Part shown: piece by piece, positions 3,001-9,531 of the stretch
Layout: each line of letters opens with the position of its first letter
How positions within the stretch are numbered: the stretch's first letter is position 1
Origin: an uncultured Planctomycetaceae bacterium
GTDB taxonomy: Bacteria; Planctomycetota; UBA1135; GCA-002686595
Assembly (NCBI GenBank): GCA_964358875.1
Contig: CAYHRR010000008.1
Coordinates: forward strand, 1-21,228
Length of the DNA stretch: 21,228 bases
Direction of reading: 5' to 3'
Notes under the pieces: generated by a model
Databases searched by the model: none
Told to the model about the DNA's origin: nothing
What the model saw: the letters and a program-made list of their open reading frames with translations, nothing else
Position numbers and translations under genes: made by a program

Positions 3001-3623
3001 GCATCGACACCAACATCGCGCGCGGCGCCTTGCGACCGGACCTGCGTTTGCGCGGAACCGGAGCGGCGCCGCAACTGTCCGGCGCCTTGTTCGTCGATCC
3101 GACGCGCGTGTACTTGCCGGCGAGCACGCTCGAGCTGCGCGGCGGTTCGTTGACCATCGACCGACGCCATCCGCTCGATCCCGGGCTCGATCTCGCCTTG
3201 ACCACGCGTGTGCGCGGCTACGAAGTGCAAGCGCGCGTCGGCGGCACATATGAGGAGCCCGAGCTCGAGCTCTCCTCGACGCCGCCGCTGCCGGCCGAAG
3301 ATCTGTTGTTGCTGTTGCTAGCGGGGCGCGCGCCGGGCACTTCGCTGACCGGCGACAGCGGAGCGCAGGCTGCGGAAACCGTCATCGTCTACCTGGGCAA
3401 GGACCTCGTGACGCGCTGGTTCGGCGGCGATTCGTCGTTGCTCGAGCGCTTCGAGTGGCAGGTCGGCGCGGACGTCACCCAGGCCGGCGGCTCGACCGAG
3501 CAAGTGCAGATTCGCTTGTCGGGCGAGAACAACGGCACCGGTCGCGCGCTGTACCTGCGCGGCGAGAAGGACGTGTACGAGCGCATCAACTACGGCGTGC
3601 GTTTCGTGCTGAGGTTGCGATGA
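1..3623 (+). CDS. TamB-like translocation and assembly module protein (DUF490/AsmA-like); 5' end probably lies outside the window
   Basis: The frame stays open from base 3 to the stop at 3621-3623, and the first GTG is at 21. The 1200-aa product is long, repetitive and beta-rich (recurring G-x-L / LSG / ARV motifs). It ends with ...LYLRGEKDVYERINYGVRFVLRLR, which is typical of the TamB DUF490 C-terminus. It is immediately followed by, and overlaps ATGA with, an Omp85 gene. Confidence 0.75.
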   Translation, partial: EFAASDVNIELRFAGGARAALDGGTIQGESNGDGTRIALVAEHVSLPREWPTSAHEIAGRAELRYANGVVEVNALDVTGDVAVGFSNGRVDLTKLASGELNFATDLTAFGGRAQVRGSIARGSFEASYVTDDVELEALLAFAAPALHEAPQGRATIAGEVLVVDGRPAVSARGVVVDACVLGRDIDRLEADAAWRPGLVEIAVLEARREENRVVARSVSVPLGRATWLDTLRASRGDVEVELYDLPTLFDLPRERVPLHRLQLSGTLTDDGIALSGGRLATRNGQFALQTGRITWSALDEPLLASSRFEADLTAGFDDLSDLGPILGTARWSGSLRGFLHVTGTLGKPVGTLDLAGRDLVVAGFEVGELTALARVDGTRLVVQTVEASGALGELKLTGEYDLVEQRVEHARWTAGTQRLALWLPRFVRSGALEINAEISGPLSAPSGTFEAGASELTFVEGPPLTELRVVGAHEGSQLRVERFSAKVAGVAIEARGAVQHTRWALPLSIEIAAAEIARDHIALSLAQPAFVTVTAEGIAAPDVELDGTAGRLRAFLRTSGSDVFARFQSDELAPMTVLAPWLPAGFDVQRIAGTAEVSRSSGAWSASADVQLSAVHIAPEWPAFDATLRADVGDGRAHIEALEVSTKRGTLLTVSGVVPFEFAEPLRRPRGVFETRATLTIADADEVPWQALGLDGTCAGALSATAEVGGVWPELHGTLALQGENLSVIPDDRRSTLAIDAPPSGALDARLVLDDGLRIERCALRAGDDLDLELAGTCLDAADTRALLDGRSNAWREFTLALTGRWSASDVGFLAAFVPAVRRVSGASDGEFALNGTWGAPRGSGSVRLHRGELRLQQGLPPFQELEGSARFDGTRLSIERATGELGAGPFEVRGAIDFAEREPRFDLALSGSELLLVQQRDFRVRADAELTLRGPLSALELSGSLDTRESRWTRNVDWFVPRGRRGARAGSSSTLFSIVEGPLATLRFDIAVRAAEALRIDTNIARGALRPDLRLRGTGAAPQLSGALFVDPTRVYLPASTLELRGGSLTIDRRHPLDPGLDLALTTRVRGYEVQARVGGTYEEPELELSSTPPLPAEDLLLLLLAGRAPGTSLTGDSGAQAAETVIVYLGKDLVTRWFGGDSSLLERFEWQVGADVTQAGGSTEQVQIRLSGENNGTGRALYLRGEKDVYERINYGVRFVLRLR

Positions 3624-5638
3624 AGCGTGCGCTGTCGGTTCTGCTCGCACTCGCCGCCTGCCGCGCGAATCCGCCGGCTCAATCCGGCGCGCAGGGCCCG
3701 CGTCGCGAGCTCGAATTCCTCGGCGCGAGTCGCTTCCCGCTGCACGAACTCGAGGCTGCGGTCGACACCGACCTCGGCGAAGTCGCCGACCGCAAGTCGC
3801 CGAAGTCCGCCGTCGACGACGCGGCCTACGCGTTGGTCGAGTTCTATCGCGCACGCGGCTTTCCCGACTGCACGGTCGAGTACGAGCTCGTCGAAGTGAC
3901 GCCCGCGCACCTGCGCGCGCGCTTCACGATCGTCGAGGGCGTGCAAACGCTGCTGGCCGGAATCGAGCTCGTCGGCAACGCGCGCTTCGATCGCGCGGAG
4001 TTGCTCGCCGCAGCCGGTTTCTCCGACGAGCCGCGCCCGTACGTCGAAAGCGAGCTCGCGCATGTCGCCGATGCGCTTGCCGCGCACTACTTGTCGAAGG
4101 GCTACCTCGACGTGCGCGTCACGGAGCCGCAGGTCGAACTCGACGACTCGCACGAGCACGCGCGCGCGACGATTCGTGTCGAGGAAGGCGCGTGCTACCG
4201 CCTCGCGGCGGCGCCGCGTGTCGAAGGCGGAGTGCCGGCGATCGATGCCGCTGTCGACACGAGTGACCGCATCGGCAAAGCGCTCGCGCCGCGCACGCTC
4301 GTCGACCTGCGCGGTCGCGTCGAGGAGCTCTATCAACAACGCGGCTATCCGGAGGTCACCGTCGACGCGTTGCCGCCGACGCTCGATGAGAAGGGCGGCG
4401 CGCAGTTGACGTTCCGTGTCGTGCCCGGCGAACGCGTCGTGATTTCCGAGCTGAACGTCGTCGGCAACGCCAAGACGCGCACGGCGGCCGTGCTCGCGCA
4501 CGTGAAGTTGGCGAAGGGCGACGTCTACGACGTGCGCGCCGTGCGCGAGAGTTTCCGCGAGCTGTACCGCACCGGGTTGTTCTCGCGCGTGCGCCTCGAC
4601 GTCGACACGGCCGGCGGCTCGCTCCGACCGCTGCGCATCGAGGTCGAGGAGGCGCCGTCGACGGAGTTGTTCGTCGAGCCCGGCCTCGGCTCCTACGAAG
4701 GCCCGCGTTTTCTCGTCGGCTGGCGCGAGCACAATTTGCTGGGCACCGCGCGTTCGCTGCAACTCGAAGGCCTGATGGCGCAGCGCACGCAGCGCGCGAT
4801 CGTCGGCGTCAGCGATCCGCGTCTGTTCGATTCCGAGTTCCTGGCCAGCCTGTCGGTGTTCGGCGAGGTGCGCGACGAGCCTTCGTTCGACAGCGACGAA
4901 CGCGGCGCGGCCTTGGCGTTTTCGCGCGAGTTCACGCCGCGTTTGCGCGTCACGGGCGAGTACCGCTTTCGCCGCTCGGAGATCAGCAACGTGGACATCA
5001 CCGATCCGCTCGCCGTCGCGGAGCTCAACGACGTCGACTTGTCCTCGCTCGGCGTCAGCGCGTCGTGGGATTCGCGCGACAGCGTGTTCGTGCCCAGCCG
5101 CGGCATGTTGCTCAAGGCCTCCTTCGAGTACGCCGACTCGGCGCTCGGCTCGGAACTCGAATTCGTGCGCGGCAAGGGCACGCTCGCGCGCTTCGTCGAG
5201 CTCGCCGACGGACGCGTGTTCGCCATGTCGTGGCGCGCGGGCGCGATCACACCGTTCGATTCCACGTCGACGATTCCGGTGCAGGAGCGTTTCTTCAACG
5301 GCGGCGAGAACACGGTGCGTTCGTTCGGTGAGGACGAGCTCGGGCCGCGCGACTCGAACGGCAACGCGCTCGGCGGTCAGTCCTTCCACGTGCTCAGCGC
5401 GGAAATGCGTCAACGCTTGAGCGGTGCGCTCGAAGGCGCGTTGTTCGTCGACGCCGGCAACTTGGAGCCAGATGCGAGCGACTTGCTCGCGTTCGAGCAC
5501 TTCCGCTACGCGCTCGGGGTCGGTGTGCGCTACGTGCTGCCGATCGGGCCCGTGCGCCTGGACTTCGGCTGGAATCCCGACCAGCACAGCGGCGAGAGCG
5601 CCTACGCGGCACATTTTTCCGTCGGCATGAGCTTCTAG
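3620..5638 (+). CDS. Omp85-family outer membrane protein (TamA/BamA-like) with POTRA repeats and a C-terminal beta-barrel
   Basis: The start ATG at 3620 overlaps the TamB stop (ATGA), with a GAGGT Shine-Dalgarno 5-6 nt upstream. The N-terminus MKRALSVLLALAACRANP is a signal or lipobox-like peptide. Repeated POTRA-like segments (e.g. VVISELNVVGNAKTR..., GIELVGNARFD) are present. The C-terminus ...HFSVGMSF ends in an aromatic residue, the classical Omp85 beta-signal. The ORF-track start at 3455 is an upstream in-frame extension. Confidence 0.85.
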   Translation: MKRALSVLLALAACRANPPAQSGAQGPRRELEFLGASRFPLHELEAAVDTDLGEVADRKSPKSAVDDAAYALVEFYRARGFPDCTVEYELVEVTPAHLRARFTIVEGVQTLLAGIELVGNARFDRAELLAAAGFSDEPRPYVESELAHVADALAAHYLSKGYLDVRVTEPQVELDDSHEHARATIRVEEGACYRLAAAPRVEGGVPAIDAAVDTSDRIGKALAPRTLVDLRGRVEELYQQRGYPEVTVDALPPTLDEKGGAQLTFRVVPGERVVISELNVVGNAKTRTAAVLAHVKLAKGDVYDVRAVRESFRELYRTGLFSRVRLDVDTAGGSLRPLRIEVEEAPSTELFVEPGLGSYEGPRFLVGWREHNLLGTARSLQLEGLMAQRTQRAIVGVSDPRLFDSEFLASLSVFGEVRDEPSFDSDERGAALAFSREFTPRLRVTGEYRFRRSEISNVDITDPLAVAELNDVDLSSLGVSASWDSRDSVFVPSRGMLLKASFEYADSALGSELEFVRGKGTLARFVELADGRVFAMSWRAGAITPFDSTSTIPVQERFFNGGENTVRSFGEDELGPRDSNGNALGGQSFHVLSAEMRQRLSGALEGALFVDAGNLEPDASDLLAFEHFRYALGVGVRYVLPIGPVRLDFGWNPDQHSGESAYAAHFSVGMSF

Positions 5639-5872: not shown

Positions 5873-6496
5873 ATGCGCGCAGGCATGCGCTCGCACCCCG
5901 GCACCGGTTGGTTCGTCGCGCTCGTCGTCACCACGTTGCTCGTCGTCGGTTGGCCGCGCGTCGACCACGAGACGCGCGCGGCGCGGCAGAGCGAATGGTG
6001 GCCACCAGCGGCGGGCGGCGTCGACAACGAGACACGCGCTGCGCGCCAGAGCGAATGGTGGCAGCCCGAGTCTGGCGGCTTCGCGTTGCGCGTGCCGAAC
6101 GGTTGGAAGGTGGTCGCGTCGGGCGACCAATCGATGTTGATACGTGAGTGCGGCGGCGTGTTCGCCGGCAAGGTCGGCGCGGTCAGCAGGCCTGATGCTT
6201 CGCGCGTGCGTGACTGCAGCGGTGTCGAGGCGATCGTCGATGCGCTGAGCCGCGGCGGTTCCTACCACCCGCTACGCAGCCAACGACTCGTGTTCGGCGG
6301 TTGCCCAGTCCTGCGCGTGGATTGGGAAAGCAGATCCCTAGGGCCGAGCCACCCGCAGCGCGGCATCGATCTGTTCTGCGACCGCGGTGCGGCGCGTTTG
6401 TCGATGCAGTTCGCGGCCGATGTCGCCGAGTGGCCGCACGTCGAGCGCGAGTTCGAGGCGATGATCCAAGGCTTGGCGATCGAACCGGTGGATTGA
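5873..6496 (+). CDS. Hypothetical membrane-anchored or secreted protein with an internal 20-aa tandem repeat
   Basis: The in-frame ATG at 5873 gives MRAGMRSHPGTGWFVALVVTTLLVVGWP, a TM or signal anchor. The track ORF starts earlier at 5705. The repeats VDHETRAARQSEWWPPAAGG and VDNETRAARQSEWWQPESGG are followed by a globular region (ALRVPNGWKVV...). GC3 is high in this frame. Confidence 0.45.
   Translation: MRAGMRSHPGTGWFVALVVTTLLVVGWPRVDHETRAARQSEWWPPAAGGVDNETRAARQSEWWQPESGGFALRVPNGWKVVASGDQSMLIRECGGVFAGKVGAVSRPDASRVRDCSGVEAIVDALSRGGSYHPLRSQRLVFGGCPVLRVDWESRSLGPSHPQRGIDLFCDRGAARLSMQFAADVAEWPHVEREFEAMIQGLAIEPVD
5961..6062 (+). repeat. Two 42-bp direct repeats (38/42 identical) with a 60-bp period inside the CDS
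   Basis: The copies are tcgaccacgagacgcgcgcggcgcggcagagcgaatggtggc (5961-6002) and tcgacaacgagacacgcgctgcgcgccagagcgaatggtggc (6021-6062). Confidence 0.8.
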
Positions 6497-6518
6497 GACA
6501 CGCGTTGGCGCCCGTGTA

Positions 6519-7163
6519 CTACTTCGTCGAGCTGAGCCAGTACACGCCGACGCCGATCGCTAGCGCGGAAGTCGCGCCGCACAACTTGCGCTGGAACGGC
6601 ACGCGTGAGGAATCGGCGCGTTGCGCGACCCAACCGACGCCCGACGCGAAGGCCGCCATCGCCGCGATCGTGCCGAGCGCGAAACCACCGAGATAGACGA
6701 GCGCAGCGACGCGCGTCGATTGCGCGACGGCCGGCAGCACGCCGAGCAAGTGCGACGAACCTGCGAGGCCGTGCAGCGTCCCCACGGCGAAGGCCGCGTG
6801 CGCGTGCGCCGCAGGTCGCGCTTCGACGCCCGTTCCCATCAAGCGATAGAAACCCCACGCGCCCAGGCCGATCAGCACCAGACCGACGAGTCGCTCGCTC
6901 GCGCTCGACAAGGCGTCGATGGGCAGCACATCGCGCAGGAACAAGGCCGCGAGCGCGACGAGCAGCACTCCGCCCGAATGCCCCAGGCCCCAACGCAATC
7001 CGATGCGCCACGCGCGCGCGCCGCCGATGTTCGCCTGCGGCGTGAAGATGTTCGCCTTCGGCGTGATGCTCGCCAGCGGCGCGATCGCCGCAAGGTGGTC
7101 GGGGCCCGACAACACATGCAACGCGCCGAGCGCTGTGCCGAGGAAGAAGGGCGTCGAGTCCAT
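6519..7163 (-). CDS. HupE/UreJ-family putative Ni/Co transporter (6-TM permease)
   Basis: The N-terminal motif GALHVLSGPDHLAAIAPL matches the HupE/UreJ signature HPxxGxDHLLAM. A second His-rich motif HGLAGSSHLLG sits in the C-terminal half. The 214-aa product is very hydrophobic with about 6 predicted helices. Confidence 0.55.
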   Translation of the reverse strand: MDSTPFFLGTALGALHVLSGPDHLAAIAPLASITPKANIFTPQANIGGARAWRIGLRWGLGHSGGVLLVALAALFLRDVLPIDALSSASERLVGLVLIGLGAWGFYRLMGTGVEARPAAHAHAAFAVGTLHGLAGSSHLLGVLPAVAQSTRVAALVYLGGFALGTIAAMAAFASGVGWVAQRADSSRVPFQRKLCGATSALAIGVGVYWLSSTK

Positions 7164-7200
7164 CGAGTGCGTCGAAGGGTAGCGCGCTCAGGCGCATACC

Positions 7201-7256
7201 ACAGTGATCGCTCGCGTCGACGCACGCGATCGAGCCGGTGGTGTCGCGCGAGTGCA
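7201..7256 (-). repeat. Duplicated remnant of the fabI 3' end (copy A), 46/52 identical to 7984-8035
   Basis: Copy A gtgatcgctcgcgtcgacgcacgcgatcgagccggtggtgtcgcgcgagtgc (7205-7256) matches copy B gtgatagcccgcgtcgacgtacacgatcgagccggtgatgccgcgcgagtgc (7984-8035). On the minus strand it would encode ...TGSIACVDASDHCGM, compared with the FabI C-terminus ...TGSIVYVDAGYHVMGV. Confidence 0.75.
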
Positions 7257-7312
7257 TGGTCGGGCACTGCGGCGCGACGGCGCACCGGCGGCAGGTTGAG
7301 GTCAGGTCCGGC

Positions 7313-7717
7313 TCACGACTCGCGACCGATCGGCAGTCGCCGAATTCGATGCCGCGCGTCCTCTACCGTGACGATCCAACCGGGCCCGGGCTCGTCGACG
7401 CAGTCCGCCAGCACCGCGTCGAGATGTCGAATCACCGACGTAGCCGTCGCATCGCTGATCCGCAACGAAACCACGCGCACATCGGCGCGGCGCGACAACG
7501 CAGTGATCTCGGAGAAGTCGAGGTCGAACGTCACGATCGTTCGATCCTCAGCGATGCCCTTGGCGAAGATCTCGCGGTCCGGCAGTCGCGACAGACCTTG
7601 CTCGCGCAGATGAACCGCATCGTGACCCTGTTCACGCATCCAAACGGCCACGCGTACGTCGACGCCCATGTCGAGGAGAAAGGGCACGGATCGATCAAGA
7701 AGCGCGCACGCGCTCAC
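7313..7717 (-). CDS. DUF5615-family PIN-like putative toxin nuclease
   Basis: The sequence VPFLLDMGVDVRVAVWMREQGHDAVHLREQGL...TIVTFDLDF matches the DUF5615 pattern (xFLLDENL...RxxGHDAxHV...ILVTxDKDF). It overlaps the 3' end of the upstream DUF433 gene. The true start may instead be the GTG at 7687 (VPFLLD). Confidence 0.8.
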   Translation of the reverse strand: MSACALLDRSVPFLLDMGVDVRVAVWMREQGHDAVHLREQGLSRLPDREIFAKGIAEDRTIVTFDLDFSEITALSRRADVRVVSLRISDATATSVIRHLDAVLADCVDEPGPGWIVTVEDARHRIRRLPIGRES

Positions 7718-7913
7718 GCGTCAGCCAAGCGGCGTACTCGAGCGCTTCCTGAATGTCCGCGCGTTCCAAGTCGGGGTAGCTCGCCAGGATCTCGTCGAAG
7801 CTCGCGGCGTGTGCGATCTGGCTCACGATCACCGACACGGGGATGCGCATGCCGCGGATGCAGGCACGGCCGCCCATGATCTCGCTGTCGAAGGTGATGC
7901 GTTCGAAGTTCAT
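7695..7913 (-). CDS. DUF433-family putative antitoxin
   Basis: The 72-aa product MNFERITFDSEIMGGRACIRGMRIPVSVIVSQIAHAASFDEILASYPDLERADIQEALEYAA is a near-textbook DUF433 sequence (ITxDPxxxxGKPCIRGTRIxV...ILxxYPxLxxEDIxAALxYA). Confidence 0.85.
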   Translation of the reverse strand: MNFERITFDSEIMGGRACIRGMRIPVSVIVSQIAHAASFDEILASYPDLERADIQEALEYAAWLTRERVRAS

Positions 7914-7968
7914 CGCGTAGCTCGAGCGGCCGTGAGGATACCCGACGAACGAAAATCAGGGCGCGCGG

Positions 7969-8745
7969 CTAAACGCCCATCACGTGATAGCCCGCGTCGA
8001 CGTACACGATCGAGCCGGTGATGCCGCGCGAGTGCGGGCCGCACAGGAACAAGCAGGTGTCGCCGACTTCCTCGGCCGTGACGTTGCGGCGCAGCGGCGC
8101 GGTCTCGGCGATGTGGTCGAGCATCGCGTTGAAGCCCGAAACACCGGCCGCCGACAGCGTGCGGATCGGCCCGGCGCTGATCGCATTGACGCGTATGCCG
8201 CGCGGTCCGAGGTCGGCGGCGAGGTAGCGCACGCTCGCTTCGAGCGCGGCCTTGGCGATGCCCATGATGTTGTAGTTCTTGATCACGCGCTCACCGCCGA
8301 GGTAGGTCAGCGTGACGATCGAGCCTTCGCGGCCTTCCATCAGCGGCAGCGCCTTGCGCGTGATCTCGGTCAGCGAGTAGGCGGACACCTCGTGGGCAAG
8401 CATGTAGCCCGCCTTCGAGGTGTGGAAGAAGTCGCCCTCGAGCTCCTCGCGCTTGGCGAAGGCGACGGCGTGGATCACCGAGTCGAGCCCGCCCAACTCG
8501 CGCTTGATCGATTCCATCACCGCGTCCGTCTCGTCGGGCTTGGTGACGTCGCAGGGCAGCACGATCGCGCCGGGCAATTCGGCCGCGAGTTCGCGCACGC
8601 TCCTTTCGAGGCGCTCGTTGGCGTAGGTCACCGCCAGGCGCATGCCGCTGTCGGCCAGCGAGCGCGCGCAGGCCCAAGCGATCGAACGCTTGTTGGCGAC
8701 GCCGAAGATCACGCCGGTTTTGCCGTCGAGCGAGTAGGTCAATTC
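7969..8745 (-). CDS. fabI: Enoyl-[acyl-carrier-protein] reductase (NADH), FabI
   Basis: The motifs LDGKTGVIFGVANKRSIAW (Rossmann), the Y...K catalytic region (SAYSLTEITRKALPLM...YLGGERVIKNYNIMGIAKAALEAS) and the C-terminus GSIVYVDAGYHVMGV are all present. A TTG start at 8745 is preceded by a perfect AAGGAGG Shine-Dalgarno (8754-8760). The 327-aa track ORF is an N-terminal over-extension. Confidence 0.9.
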   Translation of the reverse strand, partial: ELTYSLDGKTGVIFGVANKRSIAWACARSLADSGMRLAVTYANERLERSVRELAAELPGAIVLPCDVTKPDETDAVMESIKRELGGLDSVIHAVAFAKREELEGDFFHTSKAGYMLAHEVSAYSLTEITRKALPLMEGREGSIVTLTYLGGERVIKNYNIMGIAKAALEASVRYLAADLGPRGIRVNAISAGPIRTLSAAGVSGFNAMLDHIAETAPLRRNVTAEEVGDTCLFLCGPHSRGITGSIVYVDAGYHVMGV

Positions 8746-8753
8746 ACGAGCCT

Positions 8754-8760
8754 CCTTGCC
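8754..8760 (-). promoter_or_regulatory. Ribosome-binding site (AAGGAGG) for fabI
   Basis: On the minus strand the sequence reads aaggagg-ctcgtgaa-TTG, giving 8-nt spacing to the TTG start. Confidence 0.5.
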
Positions 8761-8979
8761 GCTGGCGCTGTTCGAGCGCGCGGGCCGGGGATGGTAGCGC
8801 TGCGCGTTGCGTGCACCAATGCAGCGTTGCGCGCGCTGGATCGTGCGCGTCGACGTCCGTATCCTGCGCCGCGCGTTCGGCGACTTACGAATTCGTGAGC
8901 GCGCTCCGCGTAGACGCGCCACTTCCCGATTCCGCGCGTCGCGCTGCTGCACTGCGCCGCCACCCCACGGGAGAACTCG

Positions 8980-9531
8980 ATGCCCTTACCGATGCAGGCC
9001 ATCTACCTCGGCTCCGCGATCGTCGGCGGAGGCTTGCTGCTGTTGCAGATGGCGATGTCGTTGCTGGGCGGCGAGCACGACGCCGGCGGCGACCACGAAT
9101 TGCACGCCGGCGATCTCGAGCACGAGTCGGGCGGCATGGGCTTCAGCTTCCGCGCCGTCGTCGCGTTCCTGACCTTCTTCGGCATCGGCGGCATGGCCTC
9201 GCTCAGCGCCGGATTGTCGACCACGGCGACGCTCGCCATCGCGGTCGGCTGCGGATCGCTCGCGTTTTGGCTGATCGGACTGGCGCTGCGCTCGTTCAAC
9301 AAGCTGCGCGCCTCGGGCAACGTTGAGATCGGCAACGCCGTCGGAGCGGAGGCGAAGGTCTATCTGACCGTCCCCGCCGGCGGCAGCGGCGAAGGCTCGG
9401 TCACGCTGACCATCCAAGGCCGCATCCAACAATTCAAGGCGCTGACCAAGGGCCGTGAACTCAAGACCGGCGCGCTGTGTCGCGTGGTCGCCGTCCGTTC
9501 GAGTGACACGCTCGAAATCGAGAGCGTCTGA
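8980..9531 (+). CDS. NfeD-like (YqiJ/YuaF-type) membrane protein with a C-terminal OB-fold, partner of flotillin
   Basis: A GGGAGA Shine-Dalgarno lies 6 nt upstream of the ATG. The N-terminal half is two hydrophobic helices (IYLGSAIVGGGLLLL; FRAVVAFLTFFGIGGMASL). The C-terminal segment GAEAKVYLTVPAGGSGEGSVTLTIQGRIQQFKALTKGRELKTGALCRVVAVRSSDTLEIE is a typical NfeD beta-barrel. A flotillin gene follows 17 nt downstream. Confidence 0.75.
   Translation: MPLPMQAIYLGSAIVGGGLLLLQMAMSLLGGEHDAGGDHELHAGDLEHESGGMGFSFRAVVAFLTFFGIGGMASLSAGLSTTATLAIAVGCGSLAFWLIGLALRSFNKLRASGNVEIGNAVGAEAKVYLTVPAGGSGEGSVTLTIQGRIQQFKALTKGRELKTGALCRVVAVRSSDTLEIESV

Follow-up and report, generated by a model that had tools for sequence, protein, structure and literature searches.

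Restriction-modification gene complexes reportedly insert with long target duplication, a process that Nobusato and colleagues are said to have described in 2000 (Gene 259:99).

Such systems enter a target with a long duplication of variable length and without mobility genes (Furuta, Abe and Kobayashi 2010, PMC2853133; reviewed in PMC3874152). The duplications measure 46 to about 420 bp, and some of the repeats overlap gene 3′ ends, as at HI0105 and HI1589 of H. influenzae (PMC2853133). The authors suggested that the mechanism relies on double-strand breakage by the restriction enzyme (PMC2853133). They recognized an event when the whole module lay in an insert of less than 20 kb, the duplication was longer than 30 bp, a related genome without the insert carried a single target alignable with both repeats and both flanks, no mobile genes were linked, and the repeat was not a tRNA-type att site (PMC2853133).

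Here we analyze a window of 21,228 nucleotides, a contig that probably comes from an uncultured planctomycete of groundwater, in which a predicted toxin-antitoxin cassette lies between the enoyl-ACP reductase gene fabI and a gene for a HupE-like membrane protein. The 702-nt insert contains both cassette genes, the core of the duplication is 52 nt long, the relatives L010 and L011-L013 have empty sites (an interspecific comparison), there are no mobile-element genes, and the repeat is protein-coding. By this comparison, insertion with long target duplication is the closest known process. As in the restriction-modification cases, an addictive module without a linked mobility gene sits in the chromosome, flanked by a duplication of resident sequence, and its target is single-copy in a related genome. 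Unlike them, the locus carries a predicted type II toxin-antitoxin pair, whose PIN-like toxin is presumed to be an RNase and to which breakage by a restriction enzyme would not obviously apply; the empty sites are found in other species, and the insertion is an old one, with 12% decay in one copy. In our literature search, a toxin-antitoxin pair and long target duplication were never linked, and the reviews cite the process for restriction-modification systems, the group for which this type of footprint has mainly been described so far. How chromosomal toxin-antitoxin pairs that are unlinked to mobile elements travel between genomes is poorly explained. The fabI locus offers a clean case: an empty site in relatives, a short insert, an 80-nt resident duplication whose two copies met opposite fates, and no recombinase.

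A cassette between fabI and its original neighbor

A preliminary description of this DNA had noted that about 52 bp encoding the FabI C-terminus recur downstream at 46/52 identity. Our repeat search confirmed this and shifted the placement by a single base: 7204-7255 matches 7984-8035 over 52 nt (88%, 46/52; spacing 780) and is the longest repeat within 6400-9000. Because BLAST self-comparison of a 3.6-kb region returned it with E = 1.8e-10, a chance or low-complexity match is ruled out, as the description had expected. If a 1-nt insertion in the downstream copy (T at 7203) is allowed for, the homology also covers the last five codons, the stop, and 11-12 further bases, giving a full duplicated segment of about 78-80 nt (7176-7255 and 7958-8035). 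The stops fall at equivalent positions, TGA at 7188-7190 in the downstream copy (hereafter the relic) and TAG at 7969-7971 in fabI. The relic had been said to have lost its stop context; this is true only in part, as a frameshifted TGA stands where the stop used to be.

The 5′ boundary of the duplication is sharp, at 7255/8035, and its 3′ edge coincides with the stem foot of a terminator-like hairpin over the fabI stop. We treat this hairpin as a lead only, because its fold stability does not exceed that of shuffled sequences; no fold at the junctions is more stable than its shuffles. An apparent extension of the duplication to the start codons of the HupE-like and DUF433 genes is weak, its score being attained by 11 of 500 shuffles, and we take it as chance.

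Table 1. Features of the fabI locus (positions in the window)
Feature	Position	Strand	Details
fabI (enoyl-ACP reductase)	7969..8742	-	intact, 257 aa; TTG start, AAGGAGG ahead of start
Functional upstream copy of the duplicated target	7958..8035	-	last 22 fabI codons, stop and 11 nt; core 7984-8035
Terminator-like hairpin	7949..7978	-	GGGCG-TTTAGCCG-CGCGCCC, then TGATTTTCGT; spans fabI stop; consensus scan
Inserted DNA	7256..7957	-	702 nt: 44-nt leader, DUF433 gene, DUF5615 gene, 57-nt trailer; missing from relatives
DUF433 / COG2442 predicted antitoxin gene	7695..7913	-	72 aa; Pfam PF04255 8.3e-24, full length
DUF5615 / COG4634 PIN-like (Mut7-C group) predicted toxin gene	7313..7687	-	~124 aa; Pfam PF18480 4.6e-20
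Decaying fabI 3′-end relic	7176..7255	-	six core substitutions; 1-nt insertion 7203; ex-stop TGA 7188-7190
Native fabI-to-HupE-like spacer	7164..7187	-	24 nt; kept 3′ of relic
HupE/UreJ-like membrane protein gene	6519..7163	-	original downstream neighbor of fabI; orthologues adjoin fabI in L010, L011-L013

The product of fabI matches Pfam adh_short_C2 (3.8e-88), and its top 12 NCBIfam matches are all FabI equivalogs, each under its trusted cut-off. In relatives, FabI is 92-82% identical to that of the window. The original order is retained in L010 (a 650-kb contig) and in L011-L013 (GCA_011525785.1 and two runs), where the HupE-like orthologue lies directly 3′ of fabI; the two genes are 26 nt apart in L010 and 11 nt apart in L011. 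Since fabI and the HupE-like gene adjoin in these genomes, empty sites exist, and the preliminary description of a toxin-antitoxin cassette inserted at the fabI 3′ end and bracketed by a duplicated terminus holds, as does its count of a single DUF433/DUF5615 module between the copies. Window positions 7090-7255 are colinear with the L010 fabI tail, spacer, and HupE-like start. These genomes belong to other species, with FabI 82-83% identical, so the comparison is interspecific; the HupE-like gene itself is 65-70% identical to their orthologues at the DNA level. Those orthologous proteins have weak HupE_UreJ_2 / DsbD_2 matches, and the window protein has zero matches in Pfam or NCBIfam.

Closer relatives, with FabI at 86-92%, are uninformative because the junction has been lost or rearranged, the HupE-like gene having disappeared or another gene intervening. 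Look-ups with the exact HupE-like protein, aimed at a same-species empty site, gave occupied sites only. The relic-bearing arrangement was recovered in independent assemblies of Hainich groundwater samples, and in a 98%-identical strain from a separate run the cassette likewise sits after fabI. Because these agree, an assembly artifact is ruled out.

There is little evidence for the suggestion that fabI serves as an integration hotspot. The junction downstream of the gene is variable, with an unrelated 133-aa gene in one relative and no HupE-like gene in others, and among the relatives examined we saw no other toxin-antitoxin or defense insertions after fabI.

Local origin and decay of the duplicated tail

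The 12% divergence between the copies had been read in the preliminary description as either an old event or a foreign fabI tail brought in by the cassette. At the six core sites where the copies differ, relatives match the intact copy (7984-8035) in every case (6/6), identifying it as the holder of the ancestral state. Apart from six changes, the relic core is the same as the intact copy; none of the six occurs in the 10 other fabI alleles compared, and all are non-synonymous (0/6 synonymous). The third-position states GCG and TAT/GAT are common to both copies and specific to this species among those alleles, the GCG state being polymorphic (strain L002 carries GCC); gene conversion between the copies could imitate such sharing. 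Identities over the core follow the same pattern. The intact copy scores 49/52 to 46/52 against the fabI tails of relatives, and the relic scores 46/52 against the window's own fabI, then 45, 43, and 40 with growing distance; against the single target in L010/L011-L013, the values are 46/52 for the intact copy and 40/52 for the relic.

Therefore, it was the resident tail that was duplicated and one copy that decayed; the insertion, the duplication, and its local origin and polarity are shown. For the 52-nt core we reject a foreign fabI tail, given the ancestral intact copy and the lineage-specific states in both copies. Because the intact copy is ancestral and the relic changes are private, the 12% divergence reflects decay of an old duplicate, and the first of the two earlier readings stands. 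The event predates the split of two strains 2% apart. Since the duplicated segment includes the stop codon, the upstream copy completes fabI and remains under purifying selection. An essential gene can thus tolerate insertion within its coding end if the duplication carries the stop codon. In metagenome-assembled genomes, old insertions can be recognized and dated by brief pseudo-tails of the kind seen at 7176-7255.

The dating also bears on whether the cassette and both repeats were ancestral to the clade, the "empty sites" of relatives being secondary deletions between the repeats. Repeat-mediated deletion would leave one tail and look the same as a site that was never occupied. However, independent losses would be required in several lineages (L010, L011, L065, and others), and we found no fabI relic in L065. 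The relic has diverged by K of about 0.125 on one lineage, below expectation if the event preceded the separation of lineages that are 0.27-0.55 apart at fourfold sites, and the functional allele that it most resembles is fabI of the window itself. The lower GC3 of the cassette and its nearest homologues in unrelated contexts and phyla also speak against such antiquity, which we regard as hardly credible.

The predicted toxin-antitoxin pair

The PIN-COG2442 family of toxin-antitoxin systems was predicted by Makarova et al. 2009 (PMC2701414; see also PMC5499597), and COG4634 belongs to the Mut7-C group of PIN-like domains (PMC5499597). VapBC10 of Synechocystis is a validated PIN-COG2442 pair, in which the toxin arrests growth and the antitoxin neutralizes it by forming a complex (PMC3834315). 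Judged by its domains, the window pair is a PIN-COG2442 (VapBC-like) type II toxin-antitoxin system. As in that family, a DUF433 gene precedes a PIN-like gene, with products of comparable size (Table 1) and an 8-nt gap or short overlap between the genes; the Pfam matches are full-length, and the conserved acidic and histidine residues are present. The likeness to VapBC10 is drawn at the PIN-COG2442 level, and function is predicted solely from family membership.

The toxin protein has a weaker second match to Mut7-C in the Pfam profile search. Its gene probably starts at the GTG at 7687; gene callers choose the ATG at 7669, and the longest open reading frame runs from 7717. In an alignment of 12 sequences (the window protein and 11 homologues), it keeps all 18 invariant and all 14 nearly invariant columns. 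The DUF433 protein occurs as an identical copy on 4 contigs, and the two genes are conserved as a unit in 45 of 49 related loci. Both are intact. No NCBIfam model matches either protein, and PADLOC found no match to a defense system.

The insert has a GC content of 64%, compared with 67-70% in its neighbors, and a GC3 of 0.75 in the PIN-like gene, compared with 0.82-0.92. The nearest cassettes (69-75% PIN identity) occupy unrelated contexts, and GTDB homologues at 35-59% are spread across many phyla. From the lower GC and GC3 and the placement of these homologues in unrelated contexts and phyla, we infer that the cassette is foreign and was acquired horizontally. In our donor search, the closest cassettes, L029 (69%) and L070 (75% PIN identity), were not beside fabI; both are too diverged to define donor ends.

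By analogy with VapBC10, the antitoxin would bind and neutralize the nuclease and regulate the operon. Addictive behavior of this kind would explain why the cassette is intact while the relic has decayed. The cassette is probably transcribed together with fabI or just after it, because its leader is only 44 nt long and a consensus scan of 6400-9000 detected no sigma-70-like promoter.

Routes of insertion and recurrence at other loci

We consider it likely that a horizontally acquired 0.7-kb toxin-antitoxin cassette inserted after fabI and that about 80 bp of the resident DNA were duplicated in the process, the downstream copy decaying ever since. It would have landed between fabI and the HupE-like gene, originally about 24 nt apart; the segment now present twice in direct orientation comprises the final 22 codons of fabI, its stop codon, and 11-12 nt. 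The downstream copy would then have become a functionless pseudo-tail, acquiring six substitutions that alter amino acids, a frameshift, and a cluster of changes in its final codons. The duplication was presumably made during the insertion event itself, and two routes are candidates: a widely staggered break that was repaired or filled in, or a template switch during replication, with synthesis resuming about 80 nt farther upstream, close to the hairpin over the fabI stop. Less likely would be an integrase whose att site mimicked the tail.

One feature does not follow from neutral decay alone. The copies have not diverged evenly: they differ at 6/52 positions in the core and at roughly 10 of 29 columns over the last codons, stop, and trailer, a pattern that would suit recombination with a donor whose tail differed slightly. 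In a Campbell-type insertion-duplication, a circular cassette that had excised imprecisely in a conspecific or a sister lineage, taking a piece of the fabI tail along, would enter by a single RecA-dependent crossover within a stretch of about 50 identical nucleotides. On the 3′ side of the crossover, the upstream tail would then stem from the donor, and the relic would represent the resident tail. This would yield an identical topology and account both for the excess divergence of the last 29 or so columns and for duplication lengths that vary from locus to locus (18 to about 280 nt among related loci). At L016, moreover, two histidine-kinase tails flank a toxin-antitoxin island and differ mostly at synonymous positions; they look like two functional alleles, that is, like a supplied tail. 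Yet at least two steps would be needed, an illegitimate insertion beside fabI followed by excision and re-entry, and none of the other lineages sampled carries the cassette beside fabI. Within the diverged 3′ portion, it is the intact copy that looks ancestral and the relic that looks degenerate and frameshifted, and a stretch of only 50-80 nt would not favor efficient homologous recombination. For fabI, we think this route unlikely.

Direct repeats made from a gene 3′ end are also the classical att footprint, and the preliminary description had accordingly offered site-specific recombination as a cause. The locus resembles integrase islands and prophages at the 3′ ends of tRNA, tmRNA, and protein genes in its tail repeats, intact gene, displaced far tail, and empty sites, and its sharp 5′ boundary would suit a tyrosine or serine recombinase that acted in trans or was encoded on a larger island since reduced to the addictive cassette, with an attP mimicking the fabI 3′ end. 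In the L017/L045 subfamily, units that are 90% identical but lie in unrelated surroundings carry a common 12-18-nt core (AAGCCGACTTRT) at each end, which looks site-specific as well. The fabI insert, however, is minimal: it is 0.7 kb long, its tail is the resident allele, and a domain search of the 21-kb contig found no integrase, transposase, or other recombinase. The contig also encodes TamB, Omp85, NfeD-like, flotillin, sigma-54 activator, QueA, and FG-GAP proteins. Only 44 + 57 nt of non-coding sequence separate the repeats from the genes, so that a precise loss of the remainder would be needed here and also at L031 and L050. The two tails share lineage-specific synonymous states and differ by relic decay rather than by synonymous alleles, and related cassettes hit unlike targets (fabI, 5S rRNA, methyltransferase, and exonuclease genes). 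The family is nearly absent from mobile vectors, with 2 weak matches among 72,556 plasmids and zero among IMG/VR viral contigs. Site-specific integration is thus very improbable, and an integrase-mediated gene-3′-end island is disfavored by the lack of a recombinase, the presence of just two small genes between the repeats, and the 0/6 synonymous differences.

An insertion sequence, transposon, or miniature inverted-repeat element does not fit, as the insert ends carry no inverted repeats and the duplication is about 80 nt rather than a fixed 2-15 bp. An integron cassette would end in an imperfect palindrome, attC, near an integron integrase and attI; the contig has no integrase, and in a general fold comparison the 57-nt trailer folds no better than its shuffles (z = 0.3). 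A lone toxin-antitoxin pair just 3′ of a host gene with long repeats in the same orientation has been described in Microcystis aeruginosa, where two identical 152-bp direct repeats accompany a ParE/ParD-like module 3′ of the orthocaspase MaOC1 (PMC7935541). As that report presents the locus, however, the repeats begin 14 bp past the stop, duplicate no part of the gene tail, and contain inverted repeats, and the pair belongs to another toxin-antitoxin family.

Similar architecture surrounds homologous cassettes in other phyla, at host targets unlike fabI. Bracketing direct repeats scoring at least 40 occur at 5 of 38 usable cassette loci, whereas mock positions placed within these loci gave 2 of 394. 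The bracket is a duplicated methyltransferase tail at L050, with two stop codons in the relic; the 5S rRNA 3′ end and terminator at L031, a recent event with 51 identical nt; and an exonuclease tail at L030/L033. This recurrence with different targets connects insertion with long target duplication to classical toxin-antitoxin systems and argues against a need for restriction-enzyme cleavage of DNA in that process. Speculatively, and with low confidence, DUF433-DUF5615 cassettes, perhaps lone type II pairs generally, could be self-sufficient mobile units that enter chromosomes by insertion with long target duplication and need no plasmids, phages, integrases, or restriction-type breaks; insertions would survive mainly where the duplication spans a gene 3′ end or terminator. 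Addiction modules in general would then travel by the route proposed for restriction-modification systems, either through a host pathway or with the PIN-like nuclease and the DUF433 protein, which binds DNA, as participants. Two observations are leads only for this idea: units of one subfamily, 80-90% identical and with unrelated flanks, share a 3′ end and have variable 5′ ends, and the duplications differ in length.

The L017/L045 repeat core had been suspected of being an RNA gene, the 3′ end of RNase P, but it has no Rfam match; the only Rfam matches among the loci scanned are the 5S and 23S rRNA genes at L031.

Position and contents of the cassette

Two genes with DUF433 and DUF5615 domains separate fabI from a HupE-like membrane-protein gene, and all of these, together with a decaying downstream duplicate of the fabI 3' end (the relic), lie on the minus strand. 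Pfam confirms both domain assignments of the preliminary description (see table). The best NCBIfam matches of FabI are all FabI equivalogs, and its nearest named proteins come from Planctomycetota metagenome-assembled genomes. The pairing of DUF433 (COG2442) with a PIN-like protein constitutes a class of predicted type II toxin-antitoxin systems (PMC2701414), and COG4634, a potential toxin, belongs to the Mut7-C group among the PIN-like domains (PMC5499597). Validation by toxicity, rescue and complex formation exists for one PIN-COG2442 pair, VapBC10 of Synechocystis (PMC3834315). The family is already known and the locus is ordinary in gene content. In the PIN-like protein, all columns that are invariant across a 12-member alignment are retained. 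Cassette GC is 64% versus 67-70% in neighbouring genes, and the PIN gene has a GC3 of 0.75, compared with 0.82-0.92. PADLOC returned no match.

Features of the fabI locus and of related loci
Feature	Position	Strand	Details
fabI	8742-7969	minus	257 aa; TTG start behind AAGGAGG; Pfam adh_short_C2 3.8e-88
fabI-to-DUF433 spacer		minus	55 nt
DUF433 gene	7913-7695	minus	72 aa; Pfam DUF433 8.3e-24
DUF5615 PIN-like gene	7687-7313	minus	~124 aa; Pfam DUF5615 4.6e-20, weak Mut7-C match
DUF5615-to-relic spacer		minus	57 nt
Relic-to-HupE-like spacer		minus	24 nt
HupE-like gene	7163-6519	minus	214 aa
Duplicated segment, functional copy	7958-8035	minus	
Duplicated segment, relic	7176-7255	minus	
Lineage-only DNA	7256-7957		702 nt
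Variable junction, L065	3457-4096		
Variable junction, L005	3823-4377		
Subfamily unit, L017	4609-5424		
Subfamily unit, L045	3604-4415		
Subfamily units, L051	3719-4426; 6928-7275		
Subfamily unit, L048	2601-3243		
Subfamily units, L026	4963-5380; 6565-7119		

We retrieved the gene neighbourhoods of FabI homologues that are 92-82% identical. In L010 (FabI 83%, 650-kb contig), an orthologous membrane-protein gene with a weak HupE_UreJ_2 match starts 26 nt past fabI; in L011-L013 (FabI 82%; GCA_011525785.1 and two runs), the gap is 11 nt and the orthologue has a weak DsbD_2 match. The HupE-like gene is 65-70% identical in DNA to these orthologues, and synteny extends over both flanks (NfeD-like and flotillin genes; Omp85 and TamB genes). 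Window 7090-7255, which holds the relic, spacer and gene start, is colinear with L010 6708-6871, which holds the fabI tail, spacer and gene start. Because fabI directly precedes the HupE-like gene in these relatives, the cassette is an insertion into that junction, as had been proposed.

The closer FabI relatives (86-92%) are uninformative on the empty site. The HupE-like gene is lost in L005-L007 (92%), L063 and L064 (89%) and L008 (87%), and in L065 (86%) fabI and the HupE-like gene are separated by an unrelated gene of 133 aa in the opposite orientation, with no fabI relic at that junction. Although the junction varies, none of the retrieved relatives showed another toxin-antitoxin or defence insertion at it, which gives little support to the earlier suggestion of an integration hotspot. 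Since a domain search of the 21,228-nt contig, which the window covers whole, found no integrase or transposase, the site-specific recombination first read from the flanking repeats also gains no support; site-specific integration, or an island since decayed, is improbable.

Some smaller features lie nearby. An 18/21-nt tandem repeat in the HupE-like gene (7026-7085, 2-3 copies) adds ~13 residues (ITPKANIFTPQANIGG) that the L010 and L065 orthologues lack. A 60-nt tandem duplication (5958-6083, 2.1 copies, 83%; VDHETRAARQSEWWPPAAGG / VDNETRAARQSEWWQPESGG) in ORF 5705/5882-6496 is missing from the 184-aa L005 orthologue. The start-codon regions of the HupE-like (7160-7175) and DUF433 (7900-7925) genes are weakly alike (TCGACGC-ACTCGATGGACTCGA versus TCGA-GCTACGCGATGAACTTCGA), probably by chance, as 11 of 500 shuffles reached the same score.

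The duplicated end of fabI

The fabI-terminus repeat is real. A repeat search matched 7204-7255 to 7984-8035 at 46 of 52 positions with a spacing of 780, and a BLAST self-comparison of the 3.6-kb region gave E = 1.8e-10. We aligned the relic to the fabI ends of the window and its relatives. Beyond this 52-nt core, an additional base (T at 7203) stands in the relic, which without it reads CAC GTG GTA TGC GCC TGA (H V V C A stop); fabI ends CAC GTG ATG GGC GTT TAG (H V M G V stop). The ends are then equal in length, with stop codons at equivalent positions, and ~11-12 further bases align beyond them (GCGCGC..CCCT). Homology through the stop and these bases sets the limits of the duplicated segment (see table). 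About 10 of the last ~29 aligned columns do not match, making this part far more diverged than the core, with change almost wholly on the relic side. On the 3' side of the relic, the spacer and the HupE-like start follow in the order seen after fabI in relatives. Three separate ENA assemblies from Hainich groundwater well H43 contain identical or near-identical pieces of the window, and another sequencing run contains a 98%-identical strain; the cassette is present in all of them and the relic in every contig that extends far enough.

To decide which tail is native, we compared the core with 10 other fabI alleles. The functional copy, which still ends fabI, matches relatives at 52, 51, 49, 46, 45 and 41 of 52 positions as distance grows. 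The relic scores 6 lower against every allele except that of L065 (5 lower), and it comes closest to the fabI of the window itself. It is therefore the resident tail with six private substitutions, each of which alters an amino acid at a conserved position (G->D, I->T, V->A, Y->C, G->S, Y->D). Third-position states unique to this species occur in both copies (GCG; T in TAT/GAT), the GCG state being polymorphic (GCC in strain L002), and synonymous differences between the two cores number zero. Functional alleles should differ mainly synonymously, so a foreign fabI tail, one of two readings first offered for the 12% divergence, is ruled out for the core. The other, an old event, holds up: judged from these alleles, the divergence is decay. 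At K ~0.125, counted on one lineage, it falls between the fourfold-site divergence to cassette-bearing L002 (0.069) and to other lineages (0.27-0.55), placing the event before the L002 split but after the origin of the clade.

Duplicated host sequence at related cassettes

Across 49 related loci, the DUF433-DUF5615 pair nearly always forms a compact unit of 0.6 kb. We aligned 400 nt upstream of each cassette with 400 nt downstream, allowing gaps. Of 38 usable loci, 5 have flanking repeats that score at least 40; when the test position was displaced along these loci as a mock control, 2 of 394 did. With 1.5-kb flanks and no gaps allowed, the counts were 6 of 28 versus 7 of 226. Clear cases are L050, L031, L030/L033, L038 and L016. 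The duplication at L050 takes in ~112 nt at the 3' end of a SAM-methyltransferase gene; the upstream copy is intact, whereas the downstream one is broken by two in-frame stop codons and lacks a codon, with its old stop still visible. The ~92-nt duplication at L031 (3603-3694 / 4390-4482), with a run of 51 identical bases, comprises the final 46 nt of a gene identified by Rfam as 5S rRNA, together with its terminator hairpin. Elsewhere the duplicated DNA is the tail of a convergent 3'-5' exonuclease gene (L030/L033, 119-166 nt) or non-coding (L038, about 125-140 nt). These alignments suggest that the footprint recurs around related cassettes at unrelated targets.

At L016, 185 nt of a histidine-kinase tail are repeated at 82% identity with mostly synonymous differences, and the second tail keeps its coupling to a response-regulator gene, overlapping its start. 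At this locus the tail does resemble one that was supplied or is paralogous. In the window, a tail would be supplied by a circle that bore a fabI-tail fragment and entered through a Campbell-type single crossover; the fabI tail there is the resident allele, and we consider this route unlikely.

Two of these loci have further peculiarities. Three toxin-antitoxin-like gene pairs lie between the histidine-kinase C-termini of L016 (181-3062), which also enclose a perfect repeat of 33 nt (1036-1068 / 2719-2751). The L031 copies differ in two small, wholly different patches (TACT versus GGAAA in the 5S part, CTTTC versus TCCAAA in the hairpin loop), a pattern not expected from scattered point decay.

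Mode of insertion and other homologues

Kobayashi and colleagues reported that restriction-modification gene complexes without mobility genes undergo "insertion with long target duplication". The duplications are long and variable, the target is single in a related genome, and some repeats overlap gene 3' ends (PMC2853133). By every operational criterion set for those insertions, the one in the window belongs with them. A later review ascribes this mode to restriction-modification systems and says of toxin-antitoxin systems only that horizontal transfer spreads them (PMC3874152). A single comparable case for a toxin-antitoxin pair is a Microcystis ParE/ParD module that lies just after a host gene between 152-bp direct repeats (PMC7935541). 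The restriction-modification mode was suggested to depend on double-strand breakage by the restriction enzyme (PMC2853133), which a PIN-like toxin-antitoxin pair, unlike a restriction enzyme, would not obviously supply.

We favour a one-step origin of the duplication, either by repair at a widely staggered break or by a replication template switch resuming ~80 nt upstream. Four observations point this way: among sampled relatives the cassette is unique to this lineage, the fabI tail is the resident allele, the footprint is alike at unrelated targets, and the 3' duplication edge sits at the base of a terminator-like hairpin, as in L031. A cassette ancestral to the clade and then lost repeatedly is very improbable. 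The hairpin spans the fabI stop; fold statistics alone give it no support. Selection accounts for the position at a gene 3' end: after an insertion with a long duplication, a gene stays intact only when the duplicated piece includes its end. The window locus offers a well-resolved example bearing on the movement of lone toxin-antitoxin cassettes.

Cassette homologues in GTDB genomes are 35-59% identical and phylogenetically scattered (hosts include Burkholderiales, Acidobacteriota, Latescibacterota, Hydrogenedentota, Cyanobacteriota, Anaerolineae and Nitrospirae). A search of 72,556 plasmids gave only 2 weak matches, and IMG/VR none. L029, among the nearest cassettes (PIN 69%, DUF433 85%), lies 26 nt downstream of an ECF sigma-factor gene. 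In L070 (144-4161), the cassette closest to that of the window (PIN 75%) lies 49 nt upstream of a gene for a 1223-aa protein whose P-loop (GASGSGKS) marks it as possibly a STAND-type NTPase; the contig begins with Nextera adapter sequence. In L027, ~3.6 kb of inserted DNA apparently splits the PIN-like gene (5001-5147 and 8729-8950), and an additional DUF433 copy lies at 3193-3404.

The ~0.8-kb units of the L017/L045/L051/L048/L026 subfamily are 80-90% identical in unrelated flanks, with two units within 10 kb in L051 and in L026. They share a right end ~43 nt past the stop, ending in CCACRAGCCGRCTTGT, a core without an Rfam family match. Their left ends differ (-156, -134, -47, -27), and L017 and L045 have the CCACRAGCCGRCTTGT core there also. 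This subfamily may move differently from other cassettes.
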